Assembly: GCA_963716205.1 (NCBI GenBank)
Contig: OY970290.1
Span: forward strand, 520,322 to 584,321
Length of the DNA: 64,000 nucleotides
Direction: 5' to 3'
From: an uncultured bacterium
GTDB taxonomy: Bacteria; Patescibacteriota; Minisyncoccia; Phycocordibacterales; GWA1-40-21
Every line of letters starts with the position of its first letter. Within the stretch, counting starts at the first letter, position 1. The translations under genes and the position numbers were made by a program. Below, one piece after another: positions 1-47,271 of the stretch. Under the pieces are notes generated by a model that did not search any database, was not told the origin of the DNA, and worked only from the letters and a program-made list of their open reading frames with translations.

Positions 1-905
1 GAGGCCGAGAGCGGCAAATAGATATTTGCCGCTGTTGCACTTGTCAGATATGAGGCAAGGGTTCCACTGAATGTTGAAGTAGAAACATAATCATTTTGAA
101 GTAAAGCGATTGGTTCAAATGTGCTTGCCACCCATGTTGTTGAAGCGTATGTGGAGGAAGCTTCGGCAGAAGTGAGATATGAATTCGTGTCCGTGTAAAG
201 CTGACCGCTTGCCGTGCTTCGAACAATGCCTGCGGTTAAATTTGCAATTGTCGTCGAGCCATTTGCATTGATTGAAAATAAATTATTTCCCGTGGAATTT
301 TGCACATCAAAAAGATCGGCGACTTGCCCAAAGAATCCGCCGATAGTCAGTGCTGTAGAATTGGTGGAGGTGGAGACGATACTGACAACGGAATTCGCGA
401 TCGGTGTCGTTGTGCCAAACGATGACTGCCCAACTCCGGAAACCGCACCCGCAAGCTGCGCAAACGCCGCCGCAGTGATGAGCTGCCGCGGAGAAAGCGT
501 TTGGAATGTAACATTGTCAGAAGAAACTTCGATCTGTAAATAGATGGTGCTGTTAGTATTGAAATTATAATTCAATGCATCGGGATATCCATCCGCCGTG
601 TCGCCAATATTCACATTAAAAACTCCCGATTTTACGATTGACGGAAAAGATGTCGGAGCTGATGCCGGCCACAAACGCGAACCAGAACCGACGGTCGGAT
701 TGTCCCAGAGAGAAAATTTGAAATAGTATGTCGTGCCGGCGCCGCCGAGCAGATTACCGGAAGCGTCATACAGTCTACCTTGAAAACTTAGGGTTGTTGG
801 AGCACCAGATGCCGCGAAGGCATAGCTGAATGAGACGAAAAACAGCAGCATTGTCGCGCATAATTTCAGAAATGTTTTTTTGGCGAAAAAATGTTTTTTT
901 TGCAT
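1..905 (-). CDS. Tail-fibre-like secreted surface protein, N-terminal ~301 codons only; the gene continues past the window start
   Basis: ATG at 905..903. It is absent from the ORF track because the frame stays open to position 1, and it was hand-translated stop-free for at least 905..480. Signal peptide MQKKHFFAKKTFLKLCATMLLFFVSFSYAFA. G/S/T-rich with SxxSTYASTTW and YLPLSAS motifs shared with the 1883-aa protein at 40916..46567. Confidence 0.55.
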   Translation of the reverse strand, partial: MQKKHFFAKKTFLKLCATMLLFFVSFSYAFAASGAPTTLSFQGRLYDASGNLLGGAGTTYYFKFSLWDNPTVGSGSRLWPASAPTSFPSIVKSGVFNVNIGDTADGYPDALNYNFNTNSTIYLQIEVSSDNVTFQTLSPRQLITAAAFAQLAGAVSGVGQSSFGTTTPIANSVVSIVSTSTNSTALTIGGFFGQVADLFDVQNSTGNNLFSINANGSTTIANLTAGIVRSTASGQLYTDTNSYLTSAEASSTYASTTWVASTFEPIALLQNDYVSTSTFSGTLASYLTSATAANIYLPLSA

Positions 906-8557: not shown

Positions 8558-8896
8558 ATGTCGGCCAACCGAAGCGAAAAAATAATAAAAATTGTGAAAG
8601 GCGCGGCGGCGGATTTCATGCAAAAAGAATCCAACGGCGCATCACTCATTACCATTACGAACGCAATCCTTTCAAACGACGAGAAATATGCTACTATTCT
8701 TTTCACGGTGCTGCCGGCCGACAAAGAGCAGCCGGCGCTTGAATTTGCCAAAAGAATGCGCAGCGAATTCAAAGAATACGTGAAGACGCACACCAAGCTC
8801 GGCAAGATTCCCATGTTTGATTTTGCGATCGATCTTGGAGAAAAGCATCGCCAAAAGATTGATTTGATTTCATTGAAAAAAAATAAGGCCCAGTAG
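8558..8896 (+). CDS. rbfA: Ribosome-binding factor A
   Basis: 112 aa, immediately after infB (the conserved infB-rbfA order). KH-like RbfA pattern ...FMQKESNGASLITITNAILSNDEKYATILFTVL. Confidence 0.7.
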   Translation: MSANRSEKIIKIVKGAAADFMQKESNGASLITITNAILSNDEKYATILFTVLPADKEQPALEFAKRMRSEFKEYVKTHTKLGKIPMFDFAIDLGEKHRQKIDLISLKKNKAQ

Positions 8897-8957
8897 CCAA
8901 GTGGTAAGGCAGAGATCTGCAAAATCTCTATGCGGCGGTTCAATTCCGCCCTGGGCC
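8886..8957 (+). tRNA. tRNA-Cys(GCA)
   Basis: Acceptor GGCCCAG/CTGGGCC, anticodon stem GAGAT/ATCTC with loop CTGCAAA, T-arm GGCGG-TTCAATT-CCGCC. Confidence 0.85.
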
Positions 8958-9027
8958 TCACCAGAATTTATGTTTCTATTATATAATGGTATACTCGTAT
9001 ATGTTCTAAAACTTATTCGTATACCAT

Positions 9028-9501
9028 ATGCCAAAAAGCAAAAATTGGACAGAAAAATCTTTAAAAGATGCAGTGCTCCATTCCACAAGCATTAGGCAAG
9101 TTTTATATAAAATCAATCTCATACCAGCTGGCGGAAACTATGATCAAGTTAAAAAATATATAAGAAAATTAGGTATTGATACAAAACATTTTAAGGGAAA
9201 GGCGTGGAACCGCGGAATGAAATTCATCAGCGTGCCAAAAATAAAATTAGAGGATATTCTTGTAAAAAATAGTGATTTTCAAAGTTTTAAATTAAAAGAA
9301 AGACTTTTCAAAGCAAAAATAAAAAATATTGAATGCGAAGAATGTCACTGGGCAAAGGTATCTGAAGATGGTAGAATCCCCCTTGAGTTGGACCATATTA
9401 ATGGCAACAAAAGAGACAATCGGCTGGAAAATTTAAGGGTTCTCTGTCCAAATTGTCATAGTTTGAAATTGACGCGCAGAGGAAGAAATAAAGGGAAATA
9501 A
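9028..9501 (+). CDS. HNH endonuclease (homing-endonuclease-like), inserted in the tRNA cluster
   Basis: C-terminal HNH motif: CEECHWAKVSEDGRIPLELDHINGNKRDNRLENLRVLCPNCHSLK. Confidence 0.8.
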   Translation: MPKSKNWTEKSLKDAVLHSTSIRQVLYKINLIPAGGNYDQVKKYIRKLGIDTKHFKGKAWNRGMKFISVPKIKLEDILVKNSDFQSFKLKERLFKAKIKNIECEECHWAKVSEDGRIPLELDHINGNKRDNRLENLRVLCPNCHSLKLTRRGRNKGK

Positions 9502-9506
9502 TAAAT

Positions 9507-9591
9507 GCCTGGGTGGTGGAACTGGTATACACGCAACACTTAAAATGTTGTCTGCTTAACGCGGATGTGGGTTCGATTCCCACCCCAGGCA
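9507..9591 (+). tRNA. tRNA-Leu(TAA)
   Basis: Acceptor GCCTGGG/CCCAGGC, anticodon stem CAACA/TGTTG with loop CTTAAAA, long variable arm, T-loop TTCGATT. Confidence 0.85.
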
Positions 9592-9604
9592 CAAAAAAAC
9601 TTAG

Positions 9605-9677
9605 TGCACCCAGTTGGGATCGAACCAACGACCTTATCCTTAAGAGGGATTTGCTCTACCAGCTGAGCTATGGGTGC
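9605..9677 (-). tRNA. tRNA-Lys(CTT)
   Basis: Minus strand: acceptor GCACCCA/TGGGTGC, D-arm GCTCAGCTGGTAGAGC, anticodon loop CTCTTAA, T-arm GTTGG-TTCGATC-CCAAC. Confidence 0.85.
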
Positions 9678-9747
9678 AAGTCATTAAAATAACAGAAAAA
9701 TAACAAAAAATCAATTTATTTGAGTTTTTGTTGAAAAGCACGTATGA

Positions 9748-9838
9748 TGCTTTTTGTTGGGCGGGTGGTGAAATGGTAGACACGCTAGCCTTAGGAGCTA
9801 GTGCCGCAAGGCATGGAGGTTCAAGTCCTCTCCCGCCC
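9748..9838 (+). tRNA. tRNA-Leu(TAG)
   Basis: Acceptor GGGCGGG/CCCGCCC, anticodon stem CTAGC/GCTAG with loop CTTAGGA, long variable arm, T-loop TTCAAGT. Confidence 0.85.
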
Positions 9839-10870
9839 ACAGTTTGAAACTTTTAGCTCATAAAGAGCATCGAAAGGCGCATTTAGCGTATATTTTTCAA
9901 CGTTTTTCCCCTTTACCGTAAAGTTCAAGAATACTTTTCTGATAAAATAATCCAGTTCAGCCATATTTTTGATAGAAGCCAATGTTTTAGCCATATTCTC
10001 CATAATTTCAAGAAATTCAGAATATGTCTTGATATTTATTTTATTCTTTCCAATAAATTTTTCTGCCTCGGCTATAGCTACCTCACTTTCCTTTATTTTT
10101 TCGTCATACCGTTTTAGATCATCCTTGTAATAGGCTTTGACACTCTCCGGCTCATCATGCAAAAGCAAATCCTTAGTTCTCAGCAATTTTTCATTGGATT
10201 GAATTTTAGTTGCTTGAAGAGAAAGAAGTTTTTGTCTTGCCTCATTCACGCGGTTTTTGGATACAATTTTCATCTCCTCGACATAATGATCATAACTTTC
10301 TTTGGAAGAAAAAGGTTTGCTAGCCAAAAATTTATAAATATAGGATGTGATCACATTGGCACGCAAAGATTTTCCACGCCTTGGACAATCATCATTATCG
10401 CAACGATAGTAAAAATATCTGACAATACCATCTTTTGTTTTCTTTGATGTCGCTCCTGCCGTCATTGATTCGCCACATTCACTACAAAAAATAATACCGT
10501 TCATAAGATGGGCTTTTACACCTTCGGCTTTGCGATAAGCCTTTGCCAATCTAATATACTGTGCATCCGAAGACAACTTATTTATCTGCATAAATTCCGG
10601 AACACTGATCATTGGCACAAATCCATACAACTCTATGAGATTCGTGATCTCATTTTTTCCATACTTGAGTATACCCGTATAAACAGGATCTCTGAGCATC
10701 TTATCAATTTTTTGTTTTGTCGCTTTGAAAGGTTTTGGTTTTTCACCGACATTATTGGTGTGAGTATATCCGCTTGCATTTATATAATCCGCGATTTCAT
10801 CGAGTGTTTTGCCTAACAGCCGTGTTTGGTTTCTCAGTAACAACAGGCTTCGGCAAACGCTCAACAACAT
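9821..10870 (-). pseudogene. Large serine recombinase remnant lacking the N-terminal catalytic domain; its 3' end overlaps tRNA-Leu(TAG)
   Basis: Recombinase-domain block (LGKTLDEIADYINASGY...VYTGIL), Zn-ribbon (CSECGESM...YYRCDNDDCPRRGK) and C-terminal coiled coil. No resolvase catalytic Ser region, and nothing resembling one upstream to 11129. Confidence 0.55.
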
Positions 10871-14136: not shown

Positions 14137-15018
14137 TTAGAGAAATTTGAAACTCTGCGCCATGCTTTCCAAAATAGTTTGCACTTTTGATTCATCAAAC
14201 GCTGTCACTGCACCGACAGGATAATTTTCAATATTTCCGGAGTGAATCGTATACTCAATTGCGTAGCATTCGCCGCCTCGCACCACTCGATAACTTGTCG
14301 TATCATATAAATTCCCCGCGCCGGCGTCAGAAAAAGTAATTTTGGTAAATTGAATGCCATTGATCGTTGCCAGTGAAACTTTTTCCATGTTCGGAAATTC
14401 GGGAACGAGGCATTGTGAGACGGCATCCGGATCGCCTGATACGCCTATCGTGAACTTCGCATCACCGAAATTCGTCTGCGGCATAAATGTTTTCGGAATA
14501 TAAATTTCGGCAAGTTGAAGTCCCGAGCTCGTCGACTCCTCTGCCCAATCTTGCGAGTATCCCGCCTCGCCGAAAAGAGAAAATTGATTCGGGAATGAAA
14601 AGGAAAATAGTTTTGATGTATCGGTAAAGCTTGTCGTATTCACATCGATTGATTTTTCAATTCCGGAAATGCAATTTGAATAGGTCGTTGCATCGCCTTC
14701 GGTGATAAACGCATTGTCTCCTTCGTTCCAGAAAACCAGCGTGTCGGATGCATAGCGTGCGCCCGATGCGGAGATCGTTTGCGGCAAAGTCATTTGTCGC
14801 CCATCGGAAAGAGAAAGTGCAACGCTGCTTGACGAATAAACGGCGACAATCGCACCCTCCTGACAATAATACGTCGAGACATTCGATGCAATTCCTGCGG
14901 GCGATTGAGGAATTCTACTGCCAATAATGCTTCCGACACCAATGGCGGCAATAACGATAACGACACAAATACCTATGTAAATAATGATCTTTTTGATCAT
15001 GGCAATATTATAGCACAA
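14137..15018 (-). CDS. Hypothetical membrane-anchored extracytoplasmic protein
   Basis: N-terminal TM helix, then a 260-aa Ser/Thr/Gly-rich soluble domain. No recognisable catalytic motif. Confidence 0.45.
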   Translation of the reverse strand: MCYNIAMIKKIIIYIGICVVIVIAAIGVGSIIGSRIPQSPAGIASNVSTYYCQEGAIVAVYSSSSVALSLSDGRQMTLPQTISASGARYASDTLVFWNEGDNAFITEGDATTYSNCISGIEKSIDVNTTSFTDTSKLFSFSFPNQFSLFGEAGYSQDWAEESTSSGLQLAEIYIPKTFMPQTNFGDAKFTIGVSGDPDAVSQCLVPEFPNMEKVSLATINGIQFTKITFSDAGAGNLYDTTSYRVVRGGECYAIEYTIHSGNIENYPVGAVTAFDESKVQTILESMAQSFKFL

Positions 15019-20008: not shown

Positions 20009-22012
20009 ATGGTACAAGACAAATTCAACGGGCAACAGAGAAATTTCGGTCGAGGAAGATCTGATCGACAAAATTCCGGCGGAGGAAATTATCCGCCAAG
20101 CCGATCGTATTCGCCGATACCAGTGCGACCGACGCATTCGTATTCTTCCGAAGACGCAAAAATCTTCAACAGCGCAAATCCCGAAGAACAAAAAGACAAA
20201 AAAATTGTTTTTGTCAGAAAGAGCCAACCACATGGACACGGACACAGCAATCGCAATAAGCCCGTAGAAAGAAAAAACGCTCCGATGAGGAAAGTGACTT
20301 CAGAATTCGCCGCGCGCAAAGAGCATACCATTCCACCGATAGCGGAAGGTGTTATACGAATCATACCGCTTGGCGGAGTGGAGGAAATTGGAAAAAATAT
20401 GACTGCGATCGAATATGGGGACGATATTGTCATCATTGATGCCGGACTCCAATTCAAAACCGAGGATACGCCGGGTATCGATTACATACTTCCCAATACA
20501 AAATATCTCGAACAAAGAAAAAATAAAATACGCGGACTTATCATCACGCACGGCCACTTGGATCATATCGGTGCAATACCGTTTATCATGGAACTCATCG
20601 GCAATCCGCCGATCTACACCAGAGAATTTGCGGCGCTCTTGATCAAAAAGAGACAGAGTGAGTTTCCTCATCTGCCGGAACTCAATATTAAAATCGTCGA
20701 TGCACAAACAAGTTTTTTGCCGATCACGCAAAACATAAAAATAAGATTTTTTGGCGTCACTCATTCGATCCCGGAATCGACTGGCATCATTGTGGAAACT
20801 CCCGTCGGAGATATCGTCTCAACCGGAGATGTCAGGATCGACAATAACAACGGCATACCGACTGACGAGGAAACAGACCAATATAAAATTTTTAAAGACA
20901 GAAATGTTCTGTTGCTTCTGGTTGATTCGACCGGCATCGACAAATACGGCTGGGGAATTTCCGAGGAAGTTGTCATATCGACAATCGATAAACTCATCAA
21001 AGACGCGCCGGGAAGAGTTGTCATCGGAACGTTTGCTTCGCAAGTCGAACGCATTTTAGGATTTCTGACGATTGCTAAAAAATATGAAAAGAAAATTATT
21101 ATTGAGGGACGTTCGATGAAAAACAATGTTGAGATTATTAAATTCCTCAAACTTGCCAATACCGATAACATCATTGCTATTGAAGATATTGCCAATTATC
21201 CCTCGCACAAGATCGTCATTATCGCGACCGGTGCCCAAGGCGATGAATTCGCCGCGCTCATGAGAATGTCAAACGACTCGCACAAATATATCAAGCTGAA
21301 TAAAACCGACACGATTATTCTTTCCTCTTCAGTCATTCCAGGAAATGAAAAAGCGGTTGAAGGATTGAAAGACAATCTGTATCGCCACGACTCGCGCATC
21401 ATTACCTATGCGGACGGCGATGTGCATGCGGGAGGTCACGGCAAGCGGGACGAGCTCACGTGGCTGCACAAAAATATTCCTCACAAATTCCTTATGCCGG
21501 TACACGGCAATCATGCCCGTCTGAAAATGCATGCGGAGCTCGCGGTCGCAGGCGGCATGAAGCGAGAGGATATCATTGTGCCAGATGACGGCTCGATCGT
21601 CGAAATCACTGACAATGGAACAAAAATAGGCATGAGAAAAGAAAAAGCTCCGTCGGGGATCGTCATGGTTGACGGATTTTCAGTCGGTGATGTGCAGGAG
21701 GTTGTCATTCGAGACCGCCAAATGCTCGCACAGGACGGCATGTTTGTCATCGTCGCTTCCATCGATGTGAATACAGGCAAATTGAGAAAATCACCGGACC
21801 TCATCTCGCGCGGATTCGTTTATCTGAAAGAATCGCAGGACCTTTTGAAGCAAACGAGATTCATCATCAAAAAAACAGTCGAGGAAGGAGCCATCGGCAA
21901 TCCGATTAATTTCGATATGCTGAAAGATGCTATCACAGACAATGTCGCGCGATATCTGTTTCAGGAAACCGCAAAAAAACCGATGGTCATCCCTGTCGTC
22001 ATCGGAGTGTAA
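20009..22012 (+). CDS. rnj: Ribonuclease J (metallo-beta-lactamase/beta-CASP) with a low-complexity N-terminal extension
   Basis: THGHLDHIGAIPF motif, beta-CASP and C-terminal domain. Gly/Arg/Ser-rich N-terminus. Confidence 0.9.
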   Translation: MVQDKFNGQQRNFGRGRSDRQNSGGGNYPPSRSYSPIPVRPTHSYSSEDAKIFNSANPEEQKDKKIVFVRKSQPHGHGHSNRNKPVERKNAPMRKVTSEFAARKEHTIPPIAEGVIRIIPLGGVEEIGKNMTAIEYGDDIVIIDAGLQFKTEDTPGIDYILPNTKYLEQRKNKIRGLIITHGHLDHIGAIPFIMELIGNPPIYTREFAALLIKKRQSEFPHLPELNIKIVDAQTSFLPITQNIKIRFFGVTHSIPESTGIIVETPVGDIVSTGDVRIDNNNGIPTDEETDQYKIFKDRNVLLLLVDSTGIDKYGWGISEEVVISTIDKLIKDAPGRVVIGTFASQVERILGFLTIAKKYEKKIIIEGRSMKNNVEIIKFLKLANTDNIIAIEDIANYPSHKIVIIATGAQGDEFAALMRMSNDSHKYIKLNKTDTIILSSSVIPGNEKAVEGLKDNLYRHDSRIITYADGDVHAGGHGKRDELTWLHKNIPHKFLMPVHGNHARLKMHAELAVAGGMKREDIIVPDDGSIVEITDNGTKIGMRKEKAPSGIVMVDGFSVGDVQEVVIRDRQMLAQDGMFVIVASIDVNTGKLRKSPDLISRGFVYLKESQDLLKQTRFIIKKTVEEGAIGNPINFDMLKDAITDNVARYLFQETAKKPMVIPVVIGV

Positions 22013-38883: not shown

Positions 38884-39744
38884 ATGAAATTTTTCAAAAC
38901 TATTCTTTTGTTTCTGACTGCAATGCTTTTTATTCCTCAAGCGGCTCTGGCGCAAACAGTGCCGGCACTGCATATTGCCCCGCAAGCCATTTCCCAAGGT
39001 GATCCGGCCATGATTACCGTTTCCGGCACGACAAGCCTGCCCTTCAAAAGCGTGCCGTCTCTGTATTTTTTTCTCTACAAAAATATTCCAACGGCTTTCT
39101 ACGGAATCGATCTCAATCAAAAAACCGGTACAACGACGATCACGGTAACTTTCAAAAACGGATTATTGCTTACTTCTTCGTTTTTTATCGCCCCCCGATT
39201 GCAGCCGCAAGAACCTCTTCCGATACCGGCGCAAATGGGCGGCAATAGCGCGGCAAACCAAACAAAAGTTATATCGAATCTGGAAAAAGATAATGCAAAT
39301 ATCGCGCTTACCTATTCGCGCATGGACAAAGCTTTGTGGACAAGCGCCTTTGCATTTCCCGTTTCTCCTCCGATTATCGTCACCGATCCGTACGGCTATG
39401 GTCGGAACAGCGGCGATTACACAATCACACACAAAGGCGTTGACTTTCGCGCTCCGCCTGGTACGCCAATCTATGCGATCAATCGTGGTGTCGTTCGCGT
39501 GGCGAAAAATTATATTACCTACGGCAATACGGTCATTGTTGATCATGGACTCGGTCTTCTTTCAATGTATATGCATCTGTCACAAATCGATGTTACTGTC
39601 GGCGAGCTTGTGCAAAAAGGAGAGTTCATCGGACTTTCCGGCGAGACTGGATATTCCGAGGGTCCGCATTTGCATCTGACCGTGCGCATCAATGGAATAT
39701 CGATAGATCCGCTTGCATTCTTTGCACTTTTCGGAATCAAATAA
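38884..39744 (+). CDS. M23 family metallopeptidase (LytM domain), secreted
   Basis: Signal peptide. HKGVDFRAPPGTPIYAI ... GETGYSEGPHLHLTV (HxxxD and HxH motifs). Confidence 0.85.
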   Translation: MKFFKTILLFLTAMLFIPQAALAQTVPALHIAPQAISQGDPAMITVSGTTSLPFKSVPSLYFFLYKNIPTAFYGIDLNQKTGTTTITVTFKNGLLLTSSFFIAPRLQPQEPLPIPAQMGGNSAANQTKVISNLEKDNANIALTYSRMDKALWTSAFAFPVSPPIIVTDPYGYGRNSGDYTITHKGVDFRAPPGTPIYAINRGVVRVAKNYITYGNTVIVDHGLGLLSMYMHLSQIDVTVGELVQKGEFIGLSGETGYSEGPHLHLTVRINGISIDPLAFFALFGIK

Positions 39745-39761
39745 AAATATTCAGTTTATTT

Positions 39762-40125
39762 TTATAACTCTCGGAAAAATATCGCCAGTACAATCAAAAG
39801 AAGAACAAAATATAAAATATAGCTTGCTTGAGAATTTTTTTGCGCAGTACTCGTCGCCGTTATCATCGTTCCAACGTTAGTATTTACAATTTTTGTCGAA
39901 GTCGATGTAGTTGAAACAATCGGCAAATTTGGCGGGAGTCCGCCGCTTATTGTCGGAGTTTTTGTTTGAATAAATGATGAAGGTATCGGAGTATTTATCG
40001 CAACACTGTTTTTTTGAACCGATGGTGACGGAGTTTGATTTGAAAAAAGAGCTGCTTCAGGACTTGCAAAAAAAGATGCCTCCGCCGCCCGTAAAACTGA
40101 CGGCGCTGACTTGATTGGGTCGCCA
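39762..40125 (-). other. Open +1-frame continuation of the WINF-repeat gene: Ser/Thr/Pro-rich stalk plus C-terminal hydrophobic anchor, with no start codon of its own
   Basis: A 120-codon frame with no in-frame stop, ending TAA at 39764..39762. It encodes ...SNQTPSPSVQKNSVAINTPIPSS...STTSTSTKIV...ILYFVLLLIVLAIFFREL. It joins the upstream ORF in-frame if the T7 tract (A7 on plus strand, 40068..40074) were T6. Confidence 0.5.
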
Positions 40126-40524
40126 ATCCGTCACCACATTGCAATACGCGCAATCAAACGTGATCGTTCCGGCGAGTGCGCCATTCGCGGTGCCGGAAAA
40201 TTTACCGGTCGCAGGATTTATGGTAACTCCCGAAAAATTAATCCATCCCAAATTTTCACCCCATGCAAATCCGGACAAATTTCCTTCTCCGTCATTGATA
40301 ACACCTCCTTCAGCCGGAGCAAAATTGATCCATCCGGCATTTGCCGACCATGCGTATCCGGAGAGACTATTGCTATTGACAATAACATTTTCAAAATTGA
40401 TATATCCAACATTATTGCTCCATGCATATTCATACGGATCGGAAATTGTTCCTGCTGCAGCAAACGAAATAAAAAGAAAAAAACTTAAAGAACAAATAGA
40501 GATGATAAGCTGTTTTTTAATCAT
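40057..40524 (-). CDS. Secreted WINF-repeat protein whose frame breaks at a T7 tract (see the entry at 39762..40125)
   Basis: Signal peptide. Three ~27-aa repeats (YAWSNNVGYINF, YAWSANAGWINF, FAWGENLGWINF). The stop TGA lies 2 codons after a TTTTTTT run. Confidence 0.6.
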   Translation of the reverse strand: MIKKQLIISICSLSFFLFISFAAAGTISDPYEYAWSNNVGYINFENVIVNSNSLSGYAWSANAGWINFAPAEGGVINDGEGNLSGFAWGENLGWINFSGVTINPATGKFSGTANGALAGTITFDCAYCNVVTDWRPNQVSAVSFTGGGGIFFCKS

Positions 40525-40530
40525 AAAATA

Positions 40531-40905
40531 TTATTGAGTATTGGTCGTCGATGTCGAAATTGGTGCAACATTGATGAGTTTATTGATTGATGGACGATAC
40601 AAGATTGCTTTCATTGAAGTTGTGTAAGCAAACAACACATCTCCATTTTCGGCATCGGCAAAAAACGGCTGATTTTTCAGTTTGCTCGTATCGGAAATGA
40701 CAGCAATGCTCGGTGTTTCATTTGCCGGAAGTTGAATCAGTTTTCCGAGATCAGCAATGAGTTCATTTTCCTCCTTTTGCGCTTTCGCATTTGCATTCAC
40801 CGTCAATGATTCATATTTATGATAAAAATAAAAAGAACCGCATGTGCCTACAACGGCGATACCGGCGAGAATGATGATGAAAAGTTTTTTTGATTTGGAT
40901 TTCAT
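40531..40905 (-). CDS. Small membrane-anchored hypothetical protein
   Basis: N-terminal TM (LFIIILAGIAVVGTCGSF), 124 aa. Immediately downstream of the giant surface-protein gene on the same strand. Confidence 0.45.
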   Translation of the reverse strand: MKSKSKKLFIIILAGIAVVGTCGSFYFYHKYESLTVNANAKAQKEENELIADLGKLIQLPANETPSIAVISDTSKLKNQPFFADAENGDVLFAYTTSMKAILYRPSINKLINVAPISTSTTNTQ

Positions 40906-40915
40906 AATTTATAAT

Positions 40916-43900
40916 TTACGGCGTTGTTGTAGCATCTGTTTGTGACAGGTCTGATGTTGTCGCCATGTCCGCATCGCTGCTTGCATCTTGGTCATCCGTT
41001 GATGATGCATCGCTTACGACCGTCTGATCGTCTGTTGAAGTCGCTGTTTGATCGTCAACTGATGAGGAATCCGTGCTTGATGCCGAATCATCCGTCGAAG
41101 TTGCCGTTATATCCGATGGATCGGAAGAGCTTGCTTCAGTTGTGGTTGCAATTTGCGTCGAATCTCCTGCCGAAGAAGGTGTCTGTATTTCAGTTGGAGC
41201 GAGAGAAGAACTTACATTACTATTGTCCATAATCGCTTGGAGCTGATCGCCGGTCAAACATACTTCAGTTCCGTCTGATTTGGCAACACAAATCTGATTT
41301 GTATAAATTTGTTTCGCAAATATTTCGTCAAAATATCCCCTGATTGCCGTTACTCGAGCTGAAATAAAATTAACAAGAAATTCGGTACTTGAAGCTATTT
41401 CCTGACCGATCACCACATCGGGATCTTGAGCTGTTTCGGATTGAATCGTTGATATGAGCGTGGAAAGACCGTTGTCAGTGCTTGAAGCAGATGGAGAAAT
41501 ATCACCGAGAAGTGCCGATTGTTCTTGAATCGCCTTTATAATTACGGGCGTGATCTGACTATAATCAAGCGCGTATGGCAAACCCTGATCATCGAGAACG
41601 ACTGCTTCCGGAATAAGCGGATAAACTTCTTCCGCAATCAAACCGTTTTGAAGCGCGGTTGTGCCGCTATCATAATAATAATTCACCGGTCGCAAAGCAT
41701 CAATCGTTTCCAGACCCATGGTCAAATCTGTTATGTCATTTTTGAAACGCTCGGATGAAGTATTGCATGCATTTTGCGCAGCACCCTTTACAACTCTATT
41801 GCCAGCCGTAATACATAAAACCGTATTGCCATTGCTTTGAGGACCAGGGTTGCTAAAATCCAATGTTCCCGCTCCAAGCGTCAGTGTGTCCAAAGATGAA
41901 CCGATACCGATAGTATCGGCCGTCGTATTATTCGTCCCAATATTGATTGCATCGCCGGCAGTGCCTGTGCCGATATTTATCGTCTTTGCATTATTTCCCG
42001 TTCCAAGATTCACCGTTCCCGTTGTTCCCGAATCAAGCGTGACGGAACCTGTTGTGCCGGAGGTTATTGAAACATTGCCAGTCGTTCCGGTGAGAAGCGT
42101 CAATCCGCCGGTACCAGAATCCAATGCCAAACTTGTCGCGCCGGTCGTATTTCCCAGAGTAATCGTCTTTGCAATATTGATACCGATATTCATTGCCCCC
42201 GTGCCAGAATCAAGAGTCAGCGCGGAAGCGCCGTTTGTCGAACCGATAACAATCGTCTGCGTAGCTGCCCCATTTCCAATATCAATCGTTCTCGCTTGAG
42301 CGCCAGTGCCAATAGCAATATTTCCCGTACCGGAATCAACCGTAACAGTTGATGTGCCTGTTTGATTTCCGATATTTATTGTTTTTGCCGAAGCGCCGGT
42401 GCCAAGATTGAGTGTTTGAAGTCCTGCAGTTGCAACACCGGAAAGAATATTAACGGTTGAATTCGCGGCGGAGGCGCCAGCTGCAATATTCAAAACTTGA
42501 GCGGAAGTATTTGCGCCATTTCCTACTGAAATAGTATTACCAGCTGTTCCATTTCCAATATTTATTGTTTTAATGCCAGTGCTGCCTCCGCCGAAATTTA
42601 AAATCTGCGCACCAGTCGAGCCACCAACATTGATGGTGCCTGTCATTGCGCCGTTTGAATTGCCGATATCAATCGTGCCGGTCGTCAATGCACCGCCGAT
42701 TGCAATAGATCCGCCGACTTGTGCATTGCCGATTCCGATAACGTTTGCACCGGTGCCGCCAATATTTATTGTTTCGACAGATGCAGCCGCATTGCCAAGA
42801 TTGATCGTTCTCGCAACGGCGTTTGTGCCGATTTCAATATTCCCCGTACCGGCATTTAAAACAAGTGATGTCGCTCCCGTCCCATTTCCAATAGTAATAG
42901 TTTTTGCATTTGTGCTTGTTCCAATGTCTATGTTCCCGGTAGTTCCAGAATCAAGATCCAAATTCCCTGTCGTTCCAGAAACCACCAAAAGAGATGCTGC
43001 AGCAGCAGATGTAAGTGAAAGCGTATTATTTGAAGTAAGTAATGTTGCTCCTGTTCCGGTAAATGTGGCGGATGTGGTTGCAATAGTAAAACGATTGGCG
43101 CCAGCGGTAATAAATGAAAGCGGATTTGCATCGGTCGTACCGAGCGTTGCGGGAGCCCCGAAAGCGTTGCCTGATTGTTCGAAAGCATACGAACTTATAT
43201 TTTGCTGATTGGCGGGCAAAGAAGCTACATGCCATGTTGATGATTGAGTGTTGTAAATAAACTCCGCGATATTATCCGTTGTCAAAATAATACTGCTCCC
43301 TGTCGGAGTTTCAACGCGATTTGCCGCAGTGGATGAACTATCCGTATCGGTAATGGTCAGAGTAAAATTGCTGTCATTCAAAAGATAAAATACCTTGCCG
43401 TCAATGCCTCCGGAAAAACCGGTGAAAGTTGCCGGGCCGTTTCCGTTATAAATAAACCATGAACCCGTTCCCAAATTTACATTATTTTGAGATCCCGTTG
43501 TCATATAGTCAGCTCCTTCCGGAATAAGAAAATTACCCGATATGGAAATATTAGTTGTTGAAGCGCTGCCCAATGTTGTTTGCCCAGATACCGTGAACGT
43601 ATTGGAACCCAAATTTACATTTGCATTTGCTCCAGTATACGGAACATAAAGTGAACTTGATGCAAACGGAATATACGCAAGTGAAGTCGAAGCTGAAAGT
43701 GGAAGATATGCTGCTGCGGCTGATGTGGTTGAAAGATATCCAAGCAAAGTAGTGGTAAAGGTTGAAGTAGAGACGTAATTCGTAAGAGTGGATGTAGTTG
43801 CCGTGACATATCCTGCCGGATTGGTGTTGAGATAATACAAAGTTGAGGAGGCAAATGGAATGTACGCCAATGATGTCGAAGCTGAGAGCGGAAGAAATGT

Positions 43901-46567
43901 ATTATTTACATACGTGGTCGAAGCGTATGTCGATGATGCATATGCCGATGTAATGTAATTAGAAAGTAAATTAGCAGTCGATGTCGCGATGACATTACCC
44001 TTTGTATCGACTGCGAGAAATGAATTTGCAAGATTTGAAATATTTAATGCTTGGGTCGTCGAGGTACCGATGATAGAAAGTGCGGTTGCCGGAGTCGTCG
44101 TGCCGATGCCTATTTTTCCGGCAGTATCAATATTGAACACTCCTGTTTGATTCCAATCCGAGGTCAAAGGACCGAGCGAAACTTGCGTTCCAAATGTCGT
44201 AAGACCGCTCATAAAAGTAAAATTGGCGGAGGCTGAAAGCTGAACCCACTCGGACAAAGAAGAAGAATAGGTGAAAGATACATCGTGATAAAAAGCGTTT
44301 GTATTGCTTACAAATACCGCGTAATTATTTACGGGAGCTGCAAATGTATAGGTAAAAGCTCCCGCTGAACCTCCGGTAATTTCAACGATGTAATTCTTTT
44401 TTCCCGTCATTGAGCCGGATGGTGTTGATGTTGATGAAAAATCAATACCCATATAATCGCCGATAGCCAAAGATTTGATCTTCACCCAAGAAGGGCTTTG
44501 GTATTGGACCAGATCTCCCGCGGCAAAGCTTGACCATGCGCCGGTATTGCCTCCGGTATTTATTATGTAGGCATCATCATTATTTGGTGAAGCAATCGGA
44601 GCACTCGCATCACCGATTACATTTATGACTTGCACCGGATTCTGCCAGATTAATCCGGTGGCAACATTATCCACGTATGTTTTTACGGCATTCTGCGTCG
44701 GATACAAAATATCCGAAGTTCCAAGCGTAGTACTTGTGGATTTATCGCTTAAAACTTCAAAGGTAGATGATGCGTATGTATAAGGAACATAATTATTTGT
44801 CAGTGTTGAAGTGGAAACATAGTTTGAAGCAGCCTGAGCAAGCGAAAGAAATGTTGATGAGGCATAGGTAAATGTCGGAAAAGTATTATTCACATATGTT
44901 GTTGAAGCATACGTCGAGGAAGCGTATGCGAATGTGACGTAATTGGAAAGTAAATTTGCGGTCGATGTCGCGATGACATTGCCACTTGCATCAACAGCGA
45001 GGAAATTGTTGACAAGACCGTTGCCGAGGGAAAGCCGGCTGATTGATGTGGTGGCAAGGGTTGAGATGCCAGAAACATTAAGTGCCCCGAGCGTGCCGAG
45101 CGATGTGAGAGATGAATTCAAAATTCCGGATCCCAATGTATTTGAGGTTAATACATCATTACCGGTAATTTGATATTTTGTTTGAGTATTGACGATGCCA
45201 TTTGTGGTAGTTGAAAGACCGTCGACTGAAATAGCGTTGGCTGCCGTGAGATTTGTTGCGGAAACATTGCCGAGCGTTACAAGCCCGACAAGATTTATTC
45301 CTCCTGTTCCTGAATTAATATTTATTGCCGTCCCTCCCGTCCCATTGCCTATCGTAATCGTCTTTGCATTCGTGCTTGAACCGATAGAAATATTTCCTGT
45401 TGTTCCGGAATCAAGATTGAGATTTCCCGTAGTGCCGGAAGTTATATCAAGATCGGATGCAGCAGCAGATGTAAGTGAAAGCGTATTATTTGAAGTAAGT
45501 AATGTTGCTCCTGTTCCGGTAAATGTGGCGGATGTGGTTGCAATAGTAAAACGATTGGCGCCAGCGGTAATAAATGAAAGCGGATTTGCATCGGTCGTAC
45601 CGAGCGTTGCGGGAGCCCCGAAAGCATTGCCACCCTGTTCATAAGCGTATCCTGCTATAGTTACGGCAGTTGCCGTTAATTCCGTTACTTGCCATTTGGC
45701 GGCAGGTCCGTCATATTGAAAATCAATGGAAACATTCGGAGGGACCGTCAGCGTGCCGCCAGTTGAAGTAATAATACGATCTGCAGCGACTGAATTGGCA
45801 TCCTGATCAGTAAAAAATATATTTGAAGTGGAATGATTTGAAACTCGTTTTTGTTCTCCATCAACTCCAGCCGCCATGCCGGTGAATGTTGCCGGGGCCG
45901 ATCCCGCATAATCAGTAACGGAACCGTATCCGAAATATACATTATTTTGCGTTCCCGTCGTGACATAATCCGGAGTTTTAGTGGTAACAAACGGTCCCGG
46001 AAGCGTGCTCGTGCCTGCCACAGTAAGATTGCCGCTCGCGGAAATATCGCCGGTATTATCAAAATTGATATCGCCGAGAGTTCCGTGAAAATCAAGTGAA
46101 TTTCCGTTGAAAGAAAGTGTTCTGTTTCCGGAAAGCGTCAGATCCGAATTGCCGATGTCCGGACTTGAACCGGTATTCCACACCGGAGTTCCGCTCGCAG
46201 AGACTGTCAGCACCTGACCGCTTGTTCCGATTCCGAGATTTGCAAGCGTTCCCGGACTGAGAGCATAAAGAATATCTCCGGGATTATACAATGAAAGACC
46301 GGTACCTCCTTCAGAAGGCGCAAGCGCGGTTGTAAGTCCGGAGAGAGATGTTATATCAGAATTCGCACCCGATGCCGCCCCTGTCGATGTGGCAATACCG
46401 CATGTTGACAAGCTATCAGTCGGGGGGCAATCCGGCTCAAGCGTCACGCCGGGCGCATAAAGCGTTGCGTAGACATTTTGTGCAAAAAGAAAAAGAGATG
46501 CAATGACAAAACAGAAGATAAATATCTTTTTATGTTCTTTTTTGAAGCTGTCTCGTAAATTGCTCAT
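40916..46567 (-). CDS. Giant (1883 aa) secreted tail-fibre-like surface protein with a C-terminal S74-type intramolecular chaperone (autoproteolytic) domain and an acidic Ser/Thr/Asp tail
   Basis: Signal peptide. Long Gly/Thr/Ser/Asn-rich beta-repeat region with an internally duplicated ~70-aa block. C-terminal block ...NTSSERFKNDITDLTMGLETIDALRPVNYYYD...GLIAEEV matches the S74 intramolecular-chaperone fold of phage tail spikes/endosialidases. Confidence 0.8.
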   Translation of the reverse strand: MSNLRDSFKKEHKKIFIFCFVIASLFLFAQNVYATLYAPGVTLEPDCPPTDSLSTCGIATSTGAASGANSDITSLSGLTTALAPSEGGTGLSLYNPGDILYALSPGTLANLGIGTSGQVLTVSASGTPVWNTGSSPDIGNSDLTLSGNRTLSFNGNSLDFHGTLGDINFDNTGDISASGNLTVAGTSTLPGPFVTTKTPDYVTTGTQNNVYFGYGSVTDYAGSAPATFTGMAAGVDGEQKRVSNHSTSNIFFTDQDANSVAADRIITSTGGTLTVPPNVSIDFQYDGPAAKWQVTELTATAVTIAGYAYEQGGNAFGAPATLGTTDANPLSFITAGANRFTIATTSATFTGTGATLLTSNNTLSLTSAAASDLDITSGTTGNLNLDSGTTGNISIGSSTNAKTITIGNGTGGTAININSGTGGINLVGLVTLGNVSATNLTAANAISVDGLSTTTNGIVNTQTKYQITGNDVLTSNTLGSGILNSSLTSLGTLGALNVSGISTLATTSISRLSLGNGLVNNFLAVDASGNVIATSTANLLSNYVTFAYASSTYASTTYVNNTFPTFTYASSTFLSLAQAASNYVSTSTLTNNYVPYTYASSTFEVLSDKSTSTTLGTSDILYPTQNAVKTYVDNVATGLIWQNPVQVINVIGDASAPIASPNNDDAYIINTGGNTGAWSSFAAGDLVQYQSPSWVKIKSLAIGDYMGIDFSSTSTPSGSMTGKKNYIVEITGGSAGAFTYTFAAPVNNYAVFVSNTNAFYHDVSFTYSSSLSEWVQLSASANFTFMSGLTTFGTQVSLGPLTSDWNQTGVFNIDTAGKIGIGTTTPATALSIIGTSTTQALNISNLANSFLAVDTKGNVIATSTANLLSNYITSAYASSTYASTTYVNNTFLPLSASTSLAYIPFASSTLYYLNTNPAGYVTATTSTLTNYVSTSTFTTTLLGYLSTTSAAAAYLPLSASTSLAYIPFASSSLYVPYTGANANVNLGSNTFTVSGQTTLGSASTTNISISGNFLIPEGADYMTTGSQNNVNLGTGSWFIYNGNGPATFTGFSGGIDGKVFYLLNDSNFTLTITDTDSSSTAANRVETPTGSSIILTTDNIAEFIYNTQSSTWHVASLPANQQNISSYAFEQSGNAFGAPATLGTTDANPLSFITAGANRFTIATTSATFTGTGATLLTSNNTLSLTSAAAASLLVVSGTTGNLDLDSGTTGNIDIGTSTNAKTITIGNGTGATSLVLNAGTGNIEIGTNAVARTINLGNAAASVETINIGGTGANVIGIGNAQVGGSIAIGGALTTGTIDIGNSNGAMTGTINVGGSTGAQILNFGGGSTGIKTINIGNGTAGNTISVGNGANTSAQVLNIAAGASAANSTVNILSGVATAGLQTLNLGTGASAKTINIGNQTGTSTVTVDSGTGNIAIGTGAQARTIDIGNGAATQTIVIGSTNGASALTLDSGTGAMNIGINIAKTITLGNTTGATSLALDSGTGGLTLLTGTTGNVSITSGTTGSVTLDSGTTGTVNLGTGNNAKTINIGTGTAGDAINIGTNNTTADTIGIGSSLDTLTLGAGTLDFSNPGPQSNGNTVLCITAGNRVVKGAAQNACNTSSERFKNDITDLTMGLETIDALRPVNYYYDSGTTALQNGLIAEEVYPLIPEAVVLDDQGLPYALDYSQITPVIIKAIQEQSALLGDISPSASSTDNGLSTLISTIQSETAQDPDVVIGQEIASSTEFLVNFISARVTAIRGYFDEIFAKQIYTNQICVAKSDGTEVCLTGDQLQAIMDNSNVSSSLAPTEIQTPSSAGDSTQIATTTEASSSDPSDITATSTDDSASSTDSSSVDDQTATSTDDQTVVSDASSTDDQDASSDADMATTSDLSQTDATTTP
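42999..43160. repeat. Intragenic direct repeat, copy A (~160 bp, one mismatch versus copy B at 45459..45620)
   Basis: Direct comparison of the sequence. Flanks are diverged but homologous, so this is a duplicated domain unit. Confidence 0.85.
45459..45620. repeat. Intragenic direct repeat, copy B
   Basis: Identical to 42999..43160 except one G/A difference near the 3' end. Confidence 0.85.
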
Positions 46568-46630: not shown

Positions 46631-47101
46631 TTATAACTTTTTTTCTAGAATGACTTCCACGCCGATATAAAACATGACTTCGCCGTGGACATTAAGAATG
46701 GGTGATATGGAAAAATCAACCTCATATAATTCGCCATTCTTTCTTTTGTTCGTCACCTGGGTCTTGAATGTCTTGTTGCCGTCTTTTATTTCTTTCCACA
46801 TTTCATTATAAAATTCCTGAGACATTTGTTTTCCCCACATTTCCGACGGCTTCTTGCCGATAGCCTCATGAAGATTGTATCCTGTTGCATCTTCCGCCGC
46901 TTTATTGATAAATAAAATCTTTCCTGACGGATCGGTAATGATCACTTGCTCAACCATTTCCTCAAATGCAATATTGAGTGTGCCGCACCGAAGACATTTT
47001 ATTTCAAAACGTCCACGCAGCAAATTCTTTGCGATAAGCTTACCGCATTTTACACAACGAAGCTCCTTTTCTTTCTTATTTTTTTCTAAATTATCACTCA
47101 T
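46631..47101 (-). CDS. Zinc-ribbon (Com-like CxxC...CxxC) plus PAS domain protein
   Basis: Start placed at ATG 47101. CVKCGK...CLRCGT zinc ribbon, then a PAS fold (ITDPSGKILFINKAAEDATGYNLHEAIGK...). Confidence 0.6.
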   Translation of the reverse strand: MSDNLEKNKKEKELRCVKCGKLIAKNLLRGRFEIKCLRCGTLNIAFEEMVEQVIITDPSGKILFINKAAEDATGYNLHEAIGKKPSEMWGKQMSQEFYNEMWKEIKDGNKTFKTQVTNKRKNGELYEVDFSISPILNVHGEVMFYIGVEVILEKKL

Positions 47102-47271
47102 AATATTAATATTACTGCCATTACATAAACTTACTTTTATGAGCTTCAAGGAGCTTCGGAACTTCCAACTATCTATTATTATAACATACATAATGAATAC
47201 TCCATACTCTATTGTGGATATGTCAACATTCAACTCTCTGTATAGGATAGGTCTTTCGATAAAAAACTAAA

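Follow-up and report, generated by a model that had tools for sequence, protein, structure and literature searches.

Why does a bacterium of the Patescibacteria encode a giant protein that ends in the self-processing chaperone domain of phage tail fibres, and what would such a protein do there? The question is raised by a 64,000-nucleotide (nt) stretch of DNA from an uncultured member of this group (GenBank assembly GCA_963716205.1, contig OY970290.1, positions 520,322 to 584,321; hereafter the window), the minus strand of which encodes a fibre-like protein of 1883 amino acids (aa). The gene is chromosomal, and its context fits a gene of the cell rather than of a prophage. Our reading, to which we assign a rough probability of 0.72, is that the protein is a cell-made, Sec-exported patescibacterial fibre, built from modules shared with phage tail fibres, matured by an S74 domain, and adhesive.

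The S74 domain at the C-terminus of the fibre is confirmed by sequence profile, catalytic dyad, and predicted fold. The Pfam family PF13884 (Peptidase_S74) matches aa 1604–1656 at an E-value of 1.6e-8 and 35.2 bits (curated cutoff, 22 bits), covering positions 1–57 of the 58 in the profile. The match opens with the motif SSERFK (aa 1604–1609, window positions 41741–41758), in which Ser1604 (codon checked at 41756–41758) and Lys1609 (codon checked at 41741–41743) have the S-x-x-x-x-K spacing of the S74 dyad, which is quoted as SDxxxK (PMC10769870). An alignment (A1) of 110 sequences combined the C-terminal parts of large homologues with short S74 proteins that a further search had supplied; in it, Ser1604 is conserved in 91/93, Lys1609 in 94/94, and Arg1607 in 87/94 sequences. 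An AlphaFold model of aa 1575–1800 made on this alignment has a mean predicted local distance difference test (pLDDT) score of 81.9, with values of 93–98 in the S74 core. When the model was compared with the PDB using Foldseek, the sole meaningful match was the ICA domain of MyRF (7dc3), at a probability of 1.00, with 24–26% identity over 125–131 columns and a template modelling (TM) score of 0.49–0.53, normalised to the target. The viral models in BFVD gave 208 matches at E ≤ 1e-3, whose top names are intramolecular chaperone auto-processing domain, Peptidase S74, and tail fibre. PHROG 33119, “long tail fiber protein distal subunit”, matches aa 1584–1684 (E 8e-6), and a PDB sequence search with the C-terminal part returned a weak MYRF match only (E 0.87). 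The original prediction had called this domain from the letters of the sequence; a hidden Markov model search above the Pfam gathering score, a Ser-Lys dyad conserved across the alignment, and a predicted fold that matches both the solved ICA domain and viral S74 models all agree with that call. From what is known of the family, we infer that the fibre would cleave itself and trimerise.

The layout of the fibre gene and its product is as follows.

40916..46567, minus strand: whole fibre gene, 1883 aa plus stop codon, with an ATG start (open reading frame list and translation).
46466..46567, minus strand: aa 1–34, putative signal peptide or signal anchor, MSNLRDSFKKEHKK-IFIFCFVIASLFLFA-QNVYA/T, the only hydrophobic 19-residue window.
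46088..46465, minus strand: aa 35–160, N-terminal head, YAPGVTLEPDC..(8)..C (Cys47/Cys56), followed by a “GGTG...GD(I/L)LYA...IGT.GQVL” region (recurring motif).
45218..46090, minus strand: aa 160–450, module A, copy 1, a globular beta domain (aa ~194–299) and then a Gly/Thr/Asn-rich fibre segment (self-comparison).
44723..45151, minus strand: aa 473–615, module B, copy 1, “YxxxxxASSTYAST” repeats (self-comparison).
44168..44722, minus strand: aa 616–800, single-copy globular insert (LYPTQNAVKTYVDN ... GDLVQYQSPSWVKIK ...) between the duplicated halves (AlphaFold and homologues).
43679..44167, minus strand: aa 801–963, module B, copy 2 (self-comparison).
42728..43639, minus strand: aa 977–1280, module A, copy 2 (self-comparison).
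41873..42727, minus strand: aa 1281–1565, main part of a run of 11-residue repeats (autocorrelation).
41759..41872, minus strand: aa 1566–1603, last segment of the putative mature fibre before the predicted cleavage site, with Cys1585 and Cys1601 (cysteine positions).
41483..41758, minus strand: aa 1604–1695, core of the S74 intramolecular chaperone and autoprotease (Pfam, dyad, pLDDT, and Foldseek).
41183..41482, minus strand: aa 1696–1795, a conserved module that we call ext (secondary structure of the model and homologue search).
40919..41182, minus strand: aa 1796–1883, acidic, low-complexity Ser/Thr/Asp tail (composition and charge).

The sole hydrophobic segment of the protein lies at aa 14–36; a scan of the whole chain gave no second segment and none at the C-terminus. 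It is preceded by a basic n-region (KKEHKK) and ends in VYA/T, a layout that is the same in ~25 homologues. This is the pattern of a Sec signal peptide, from which cleavage and export would follow. Between aa 35 and 1603, Gly, Thr, Ser, and Asn together account for 50.0% of the residues, and Lys and Arg for 1.9%. There are seven cysteines, of which six are closely paired along the chain (47/56, 1585/1601, and 1760/1770), as fits an extracellular protein; the seventh is inside the signal segment. The positions of the 1585/1601 and 1760/1770 pairs are kept in close homologues, where the distal cysteine of the first of these pairs stands 3–4 residues before the catalytic serine. The last 88 residues, ending in SQTDATTTP, include 22 Ser, 20 Thr, and 18 Asp, but no Lys or Arg, for a net charge of −19, and the equivalent tails of homologues are Pro/Thr/Glu-rich and variable. 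Translation and composition thus bear out the reading frame, signal peptide, Gly/Thr/Ser/Asn richness, and acidic tail that had been claimed for the protein. An exact look-up of the fibre protein in the sequence collection found no record, a PDB sequence search with the whole protein found nothing, and scans for a promoter and a terminator of the fibre gene gave results no better than shuffled sequence.

The original prediction had summarised the body of the protein as ~1500 aa of beta-repeats. That description conceals a large duplication within the chain and no fewer than three globular domains that are folded with confidence. Whole-protein self-BLAST gave the diagonal only, and the duplication emerged after the protein had been split into segments: the two copies of module A (aa 160–450 and 977–1280) are 35–71% identical in segment-wise comparison, and those of module B (aa 473–615 and 801–963) 46–48%. 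The globular domain of module A is found in one to four copies in homologues, and the insert at aa 616–800 is kept at 51–68% identity in 14 of them. The head motif occurs at the N-terminus of 39 of the 98 long proteins that carry the C-terminal module (regular expression search), and the N-terminal region has weak matches to the phage tail-fibre PHROGs 11393 (E 4e-6) and 9851 (E 3e-5). From about aa 1190 to 1565 there are ~35 copies of a ~11-residue unit, xGxxAxTIxIG (autocorrelation peak at lag 11; repeats listed individually), which we presume to form a beta-helical shaft.

An AlphaFold monomer model of aa 150–812 is confident for two beta domains only, at aa ~199–289 (pLDDT 77–91) and aa ~639–749 (pLDDT 68–87, all beta); the repeat segments score below 50, as would be the case for regions that need a multimer to fold. 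In the PDB, the closest structures to this model are all parts of phage tailspikes, tail fibres, or baseplates, and the matches are marginal (E 1e-3 to 0.08). Among the matches are an Acinetobacter phage depolymerase, residues 1–335 of CBA120 TSP4, a Klebsiella phage baseplate, and 6o38 (“Structure of a chaperone-substrate complex”). At the DNA level, the fibre gene contains a direct repeat of 300 nt (42843–43142 and 45303–45602, 83% identical, 2460 nt apart), and recombination there could delete or duplicate a block of 820 residues.

The large homologues of the fibre range from 1.0 to 3.3 thousand aa, and the 68 that have names are assigned to the Patescibacteria group or Nomurabacteria. Relatives in GTDB genomes are titled Taylorbacteria, Vogelbacteria, and, in two metagenome-assembled genomes, Gammaproteobacteria. 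The latter two loci (L004, CAZFYY010000018.1, and L005, CAYVHQ010000017.1) are titled “uncultured Gammaproteobacteria”, yet they carry a patescibacterial-type cassette of fibre, transmembrane, and GWINF proteins together with the N-terminal motif, and their label or binning may be wrong. The homologues mix modules in differing numbers and orders and thus make up a mosaic family. At least three types of N-terminus are represented: a signal peptide with “YxPGxTLEPDC....C”, as in the fibre studied here; a signal peptide with “LxFQGRL...DGxYNxxFKLYD”; and a helix-turn-helix with a membrane segment. The last type, which replaces the signal peptide in P0018, P0020, and P0028 (PF12728 in P0028), is odd for a surface fibre.

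Two small genes follow the fibre gene on the same strand.

40531..40905, minus strand: downstream gene 1, a 124-aa protein with an N-terminal membrane helix, 10 nt past the fibre stop codon.
40057..40524, minus strand: downstream gene 2, a 155-aa secreted protein with “GYAWSxNxGWINF” repeats, 6 nt past gene 1.

Homologues of gene 1 occupy the same place in L003 (partial), L004, L005, L008, L009, and L010 (35–67% identity by tblastn), and homologues of gene 2 in L004, L005, L008, L009, and L010 (42–66% identity by tblastn). In all five related loci that hold the full downstream sequence, the order and strand of the pair after the fibre gene are kept.

L004 5867-7735: gene pair after the fibre gene.
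L005 8572-10434: gene pair after the fibre gene.
L008 8861-10120: gene pair after the fibre gene.
L009 11374-13296: gene pair after the fibre gene.
L010 6624-8578: gene pair after the fibre gene.

This conservation of order across loci argues for a three-gene cassette and against a lone gene. The fibres of L004 and L005 end in S74 and ext, like the fibre studied here, to which they are 37% identical, and those of L008, L009, and L010 end in ext preceded by an alternative domain (see below); the gene pair is present regardless of the C-terminal domain. Neither partner protein fell into a named family in profile searches; the gene 1 homologue of L004 has a borderline LytR_C match (22.1 bits, cutoff 22.2).

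From these features we infer export, trimerisation, cleavage, a role for the neighbouring genes, and an adhesive function, in the following sequence. The signal peptide would carry the chain out of the cytoplasm. The C-terminal S74 chaperone (aa 1604–1695), probably aided by the helical ext module, would then bring three chains into register. Once the shaft had folded, Ser1604, activated by Lys1609, would cut its own chain between Thr1603 and Ser1604. The mature fibre of ~1570 residues (aa 35–1603) would then consist of two small beta domains, one globular insert, and a terminal shaft of 11-residue repeats, and a 280-residue fragment made up of S74, ext, and the acidic tail would be released. 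The two small downstream envelope proteins would probably serve in docking the fibre to the cell surface or in assembling it there, and the fibre itself would most likely bind a surface structure of another cell. Attachment to a host cell, as the original prediction had suggested, is a plausible candidate function.

The closest known system is the S74 subgroup of the mosaic adhesive trimer (MAT) fibres of Bdellovibrio bacteriovorus, for example Bd3182 (Caulton et al. 2024, PMC10769870). For the S74-ended fibres of Bdellovibrio, self-cleavage at the catalytic serine and location at the predator surface have been shown experimentally (PMC10769870). These fibres share several features with the patescibacterial one: the gene is chromosomal, the product starts with a signal peptide, shuffled modules make up a long fibre, and the S74 domain at the C-terminus has the S-x-x-x-x-K dyad; in both families, moreover, some members end in other domains. 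There are several differences. MATs have a beta-rich N-terminal domain of ~130 aa after the signal peptide (NF053851), for which the present fibre has no match at E ≤ 0.1, and, near the tip, a capping-loop motif (V-G-G/N-pi-x-x-P-x-x-x-L), which a regular expression failed to find anywhere in the protein, whether or not the leading V was required. The fibre is about twice the ~1000 aa quoted for MATs, and 280 residues run from its catalytic serine to its end, compared with ~140 in Bd3182. For MATs, PMC10769870 describes neither an ext module nor such a tail or pair of partner genes. The supplement of that paper lists MAT-like proteins from Micavibrio, Uabimicrobium, and Omnitrophica, and none from the Patescibacteria (PMC10769870), the group of the organism studied here. 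Because it is without the MAT N-terminal domain and the capping-loop motif, the fibre is not a MAT member; on present evidence it appears to work like a MAT S74 fibre without being one. A limited literature search found no description of S74 fibres in Patescibacteria.

Several observations weigh against our reading. No cell-anchoring domain was recognised in the fibre: it is without an LPXTG motif, a C-terminal membrane segment, or the MAT N-terminal domain, so that the fibre could be released and not anchored. A whole-protein Pfam scan at E ≤ 1 returned Peptidase_S74 alone, with no YadA-type beta-barrel anchor as in trimeric autotransporter adhesins, and the LPXTG motif and C-terminal hydrophobic segment of sortase-anchored proteins are absent. 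Pfam scans of the fibre likewise gave no ligand-binding, lectin, or enzyme domain; the match of the insert to DUF2793 is below threshold (E 9e-4, 19.5 bits, cutoff 27) and assigns it no ligand-binding function. With pLDDT values below 50 over about half of aa 150–812, the shaft is not modelled confidently, and the tailspike fold matches of this model could not be assigned to a particular globular domain. Finally, the classical S74 mechanism offers no explanation for the ~190 residues beyond the S74 core.

It is unlikely, although this is the best of the alternatives, that the protein is a structural component of the envelope, such as an S-layer-like coat, sheath, or spacer, which undergoes S74 maturation without being directed at a specific adhesive target. 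A very large, Gly/Thr/Ser/Asn-rich, low-charge protein with no recognisable lectin or enzyme domain would suit such a role, and the partner genes could be envelope-assembly factors. However, the family is strongly mosaic: heads, inserts, and C-terminal domains have been exchanged and copy numbers vary, as expected for diversifying recognition proteins rather than for a coat that forms a lattice; and its closest characterised cellular relatives are adhesive fibres (PMC10769870).

The residues behind the S74 core point to a further alternative. In the model, ext consists of three helices and a beta hairpin with Cys1760 and Cys1770. It has no Pfam or PHROG match, and no match in the PDB or BFVD beyond the S74 part. 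A full HMMER pass over 1.84 billion representative proteins found ext in 414 representative clusters (135 at E ≤ 1e-10), in proteins of up to 5074 aa and nearly always 60–250 residues from the C-terminus. Among relatives ext is 50–60% identical, while the rest of the protein is shuffled. The domain that precedes it is not always S74: among 116 proteins with enough upstream sequence, regular expressions found S74 in at least 46 and another domain in at least 49, that is, in roughly equal numbers. This alternative domain of ~170 residues (“GADLAExY...GDVV..D...IGIVST.P...PVALSGRVPVKV..ENG.I..GDYLT”; carried by P0004, P0006, P0008, P0012, P0016, P0033, and P0039, among others) has no match in Pfam or among PDB sequences, but tail-fibre PHROGs 6427, 19602, and 22593 match it with their C-terminal ends, and it may represent another type of domain that processes itself or acts as a chaperone. 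We had considered the name Peptidase_G2 (as in phi29 gp12) for it, and dropped it when Pfam and PDB sequences gave no match. No named family includes the ext module or either partner protein, and it is in these parts that the system exceeds existing knowledge.

The conservation of ext, its nearly constant place near the C-terminus in so many clusters, and its occurrence behind either S74 or an unrelated domain would fit a scheme in which the 280-residue C-terminal fragment is itself the functional product or a cell-proximal anchor, with ext and tail acting as a lineage-specific unit for sorting, anchoring, or signalling, and with S74 cleavage separating the parts as in MYRF. MYRF is a eukaryotic membrane-bound transcription factor, in which cleavage frees the N-terminal part from a C-terminal membrane anchor; it provides the best solved structural match of our S74 model, and its cleavage separates two functional halves. 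In contrast to MYRF, the fibre is without a C-terminal membrane segment; the fragment has neither a membrane segment nor a known anchor motif, the tails are of low complexity and not conserved in sequence, and the helical extension could simply lengthen the trimerising chaperone. We therefore regard this scheme as improbable.

As to origin, the fibre resembles phage S74 chaperones, such as those of the K1F endosialidase and the T5 L-shaped tail fibre (cited in PMC10769870), in its PF13884 match, its Ser-Lys dyad, the position of the domain at the end of a beta-rich fibre, and its predicted fold. It differs from them in a predicted signal peptide for export, the lack of a phage context, and an extra conserved module behind the chaperone. 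The genes of the window include those for ClpB, a class-V aminotransferase, IF-2, ribonucleotide reductase, RNase J, G6PD, a release factor, FtsX, CofD, and transporters, as well as nine tRNAs, and the large open reading frames (ORFs) scanned across its 64 kb include no capsid, portal, terminase, sheath, tube, or baseplate family. Fibre genes of relatives adjoin DNA ligase, GatC, release factor (RF), and two-component genes, and nine other loci have cellular neighbours. The housekeeping context, the scanned ORFs free of phage structural genes, and the N-terminal signal peptide all uphold the earlier claim of a cellular gene. It is thus highly improbable, and the least likely of the explanations considered, that the protein is the tail fibre of a phage, prophage, tailocin, or contractile injection system lying in a bacterial contig and assembled in the cytoplasm onto a baseplate: S74 is a usual feature of tail fibres and spikes in phages, the closest folds are those of viral proteins, several modules match tail-fibre PHROGs, and a recombinase-like ORF (9821–10870) lies beside tRNAs, but the scanned ORFs are without virion structural families, the recombinase ORF is separated from the fibre gene by 30 kb that include housekeeping genes, a signal segment is unsuited to cytoplasmic virion assembly, cellular neighbours recur in the nine other loci, and the conserved partners are two envelope proteins and not tail genes.

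The recombinase-like ORF (minus strand) is of the serine type and has Recombinase and Zn_ribbon_recom domains; the resolvase catalytic domain was not detected in it. It sits in a cluster of four tRNAs (tRNA genes at 8887–9840), overlaps tRNA-Leu by ~20 nt, and may be the remnant of an integrated element. Proteins named Patescibacteria, Paceibacterota, and Taylorbacteria are 69–73% identical to the RNase J of the window (20009–22012, plus strand), and a database protein (P0190) called with a later start is 100% identical to it over 86% of the length. These names, together with those of the fibre homologues, point to a patescibacterial organism, probably one with a small genome.

A second large surface protein is encoded at the start of the window.

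3..905, minus strand: N-terminal 301 aa of a second large surface protein, which runs off the window (translation).

This gene had been described as a paralogue of the fibre gene. It does start at 905, run off the window, and share the ASSTYASTT module, but that single repeat module (module B, “ASSTYASTT...YVSTSTF”; BLASTP E 5e-10 over ~108 aa) is all that it has in common with the fibre, and its N-terminal domain is different. The head matches Bdello_MAT_N (NCBIfam NF053851) below threshold, at 27.6 bits with a cutoff of 60, and is of the “LxFQGRL...YNxxFKLYD” type that is also found in P0023, P0038, P0046, P0053, P0058, and P0067.

Other genes around the cassette are recorded here. Just upstream of the fibre gene, across a gap of 63 nt, is a gene for a small protein that combines a Com-like zinc ribbon with a PAS domain (46631–47233, minus strand), which could be a regulator; a homologue with 52% identity lies upstream of the fibre locus in L008 (1722–2219). 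An M23 peptidase gene (38884–39744, plus strand) is found on the other strand, at a distance of 1.2 kb from the cassette; it was considered as a member of the cassette and rejected, as it is not conserved beside the relatives. A protein with an MliC lysozyme-inhibitor domain is encoded at 14137–15018 on the minus strand.

What would such a fibre mean for these bacteria? All cultivated Patescibacteria, to our knowledge, live attached to other microbes, and type IV pili are reportedly the main attachment structures tested so far. For many uncultivated lineages from groundwater and freshwater, we know of no account of how partners are recognised. A cell-encoded, self-maturing fibre made from parts of phage receptor-binding proteins would be a concrete candidate for that role. 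The reuse of tail-fibre architecture for cell-cell contact, shown for the predator Bdellovibrio, would then also hold for a bacterial branch that is both very large and very different. The ext module and the two partner proteins provide defined sequence targets for studies of structure and localisation. More tentatively, and with considerable doubt, we suggest that Patescibacteria of the Paceibacteria type may possess an undescribed three-gene system for host recognition, made up of the giant mosaic fibre and two small products, one anchored in the membrane and one secreted and bearing GWINF repeats, in which ext would be a new, lineage-specific C-terminal unit that can be joined to two unrelated phage-derived domains and directs assembly, sorting, or anchoring. 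If this is true, the system would be comparable to the receptor-binding proteins of phages, but made by the cell.

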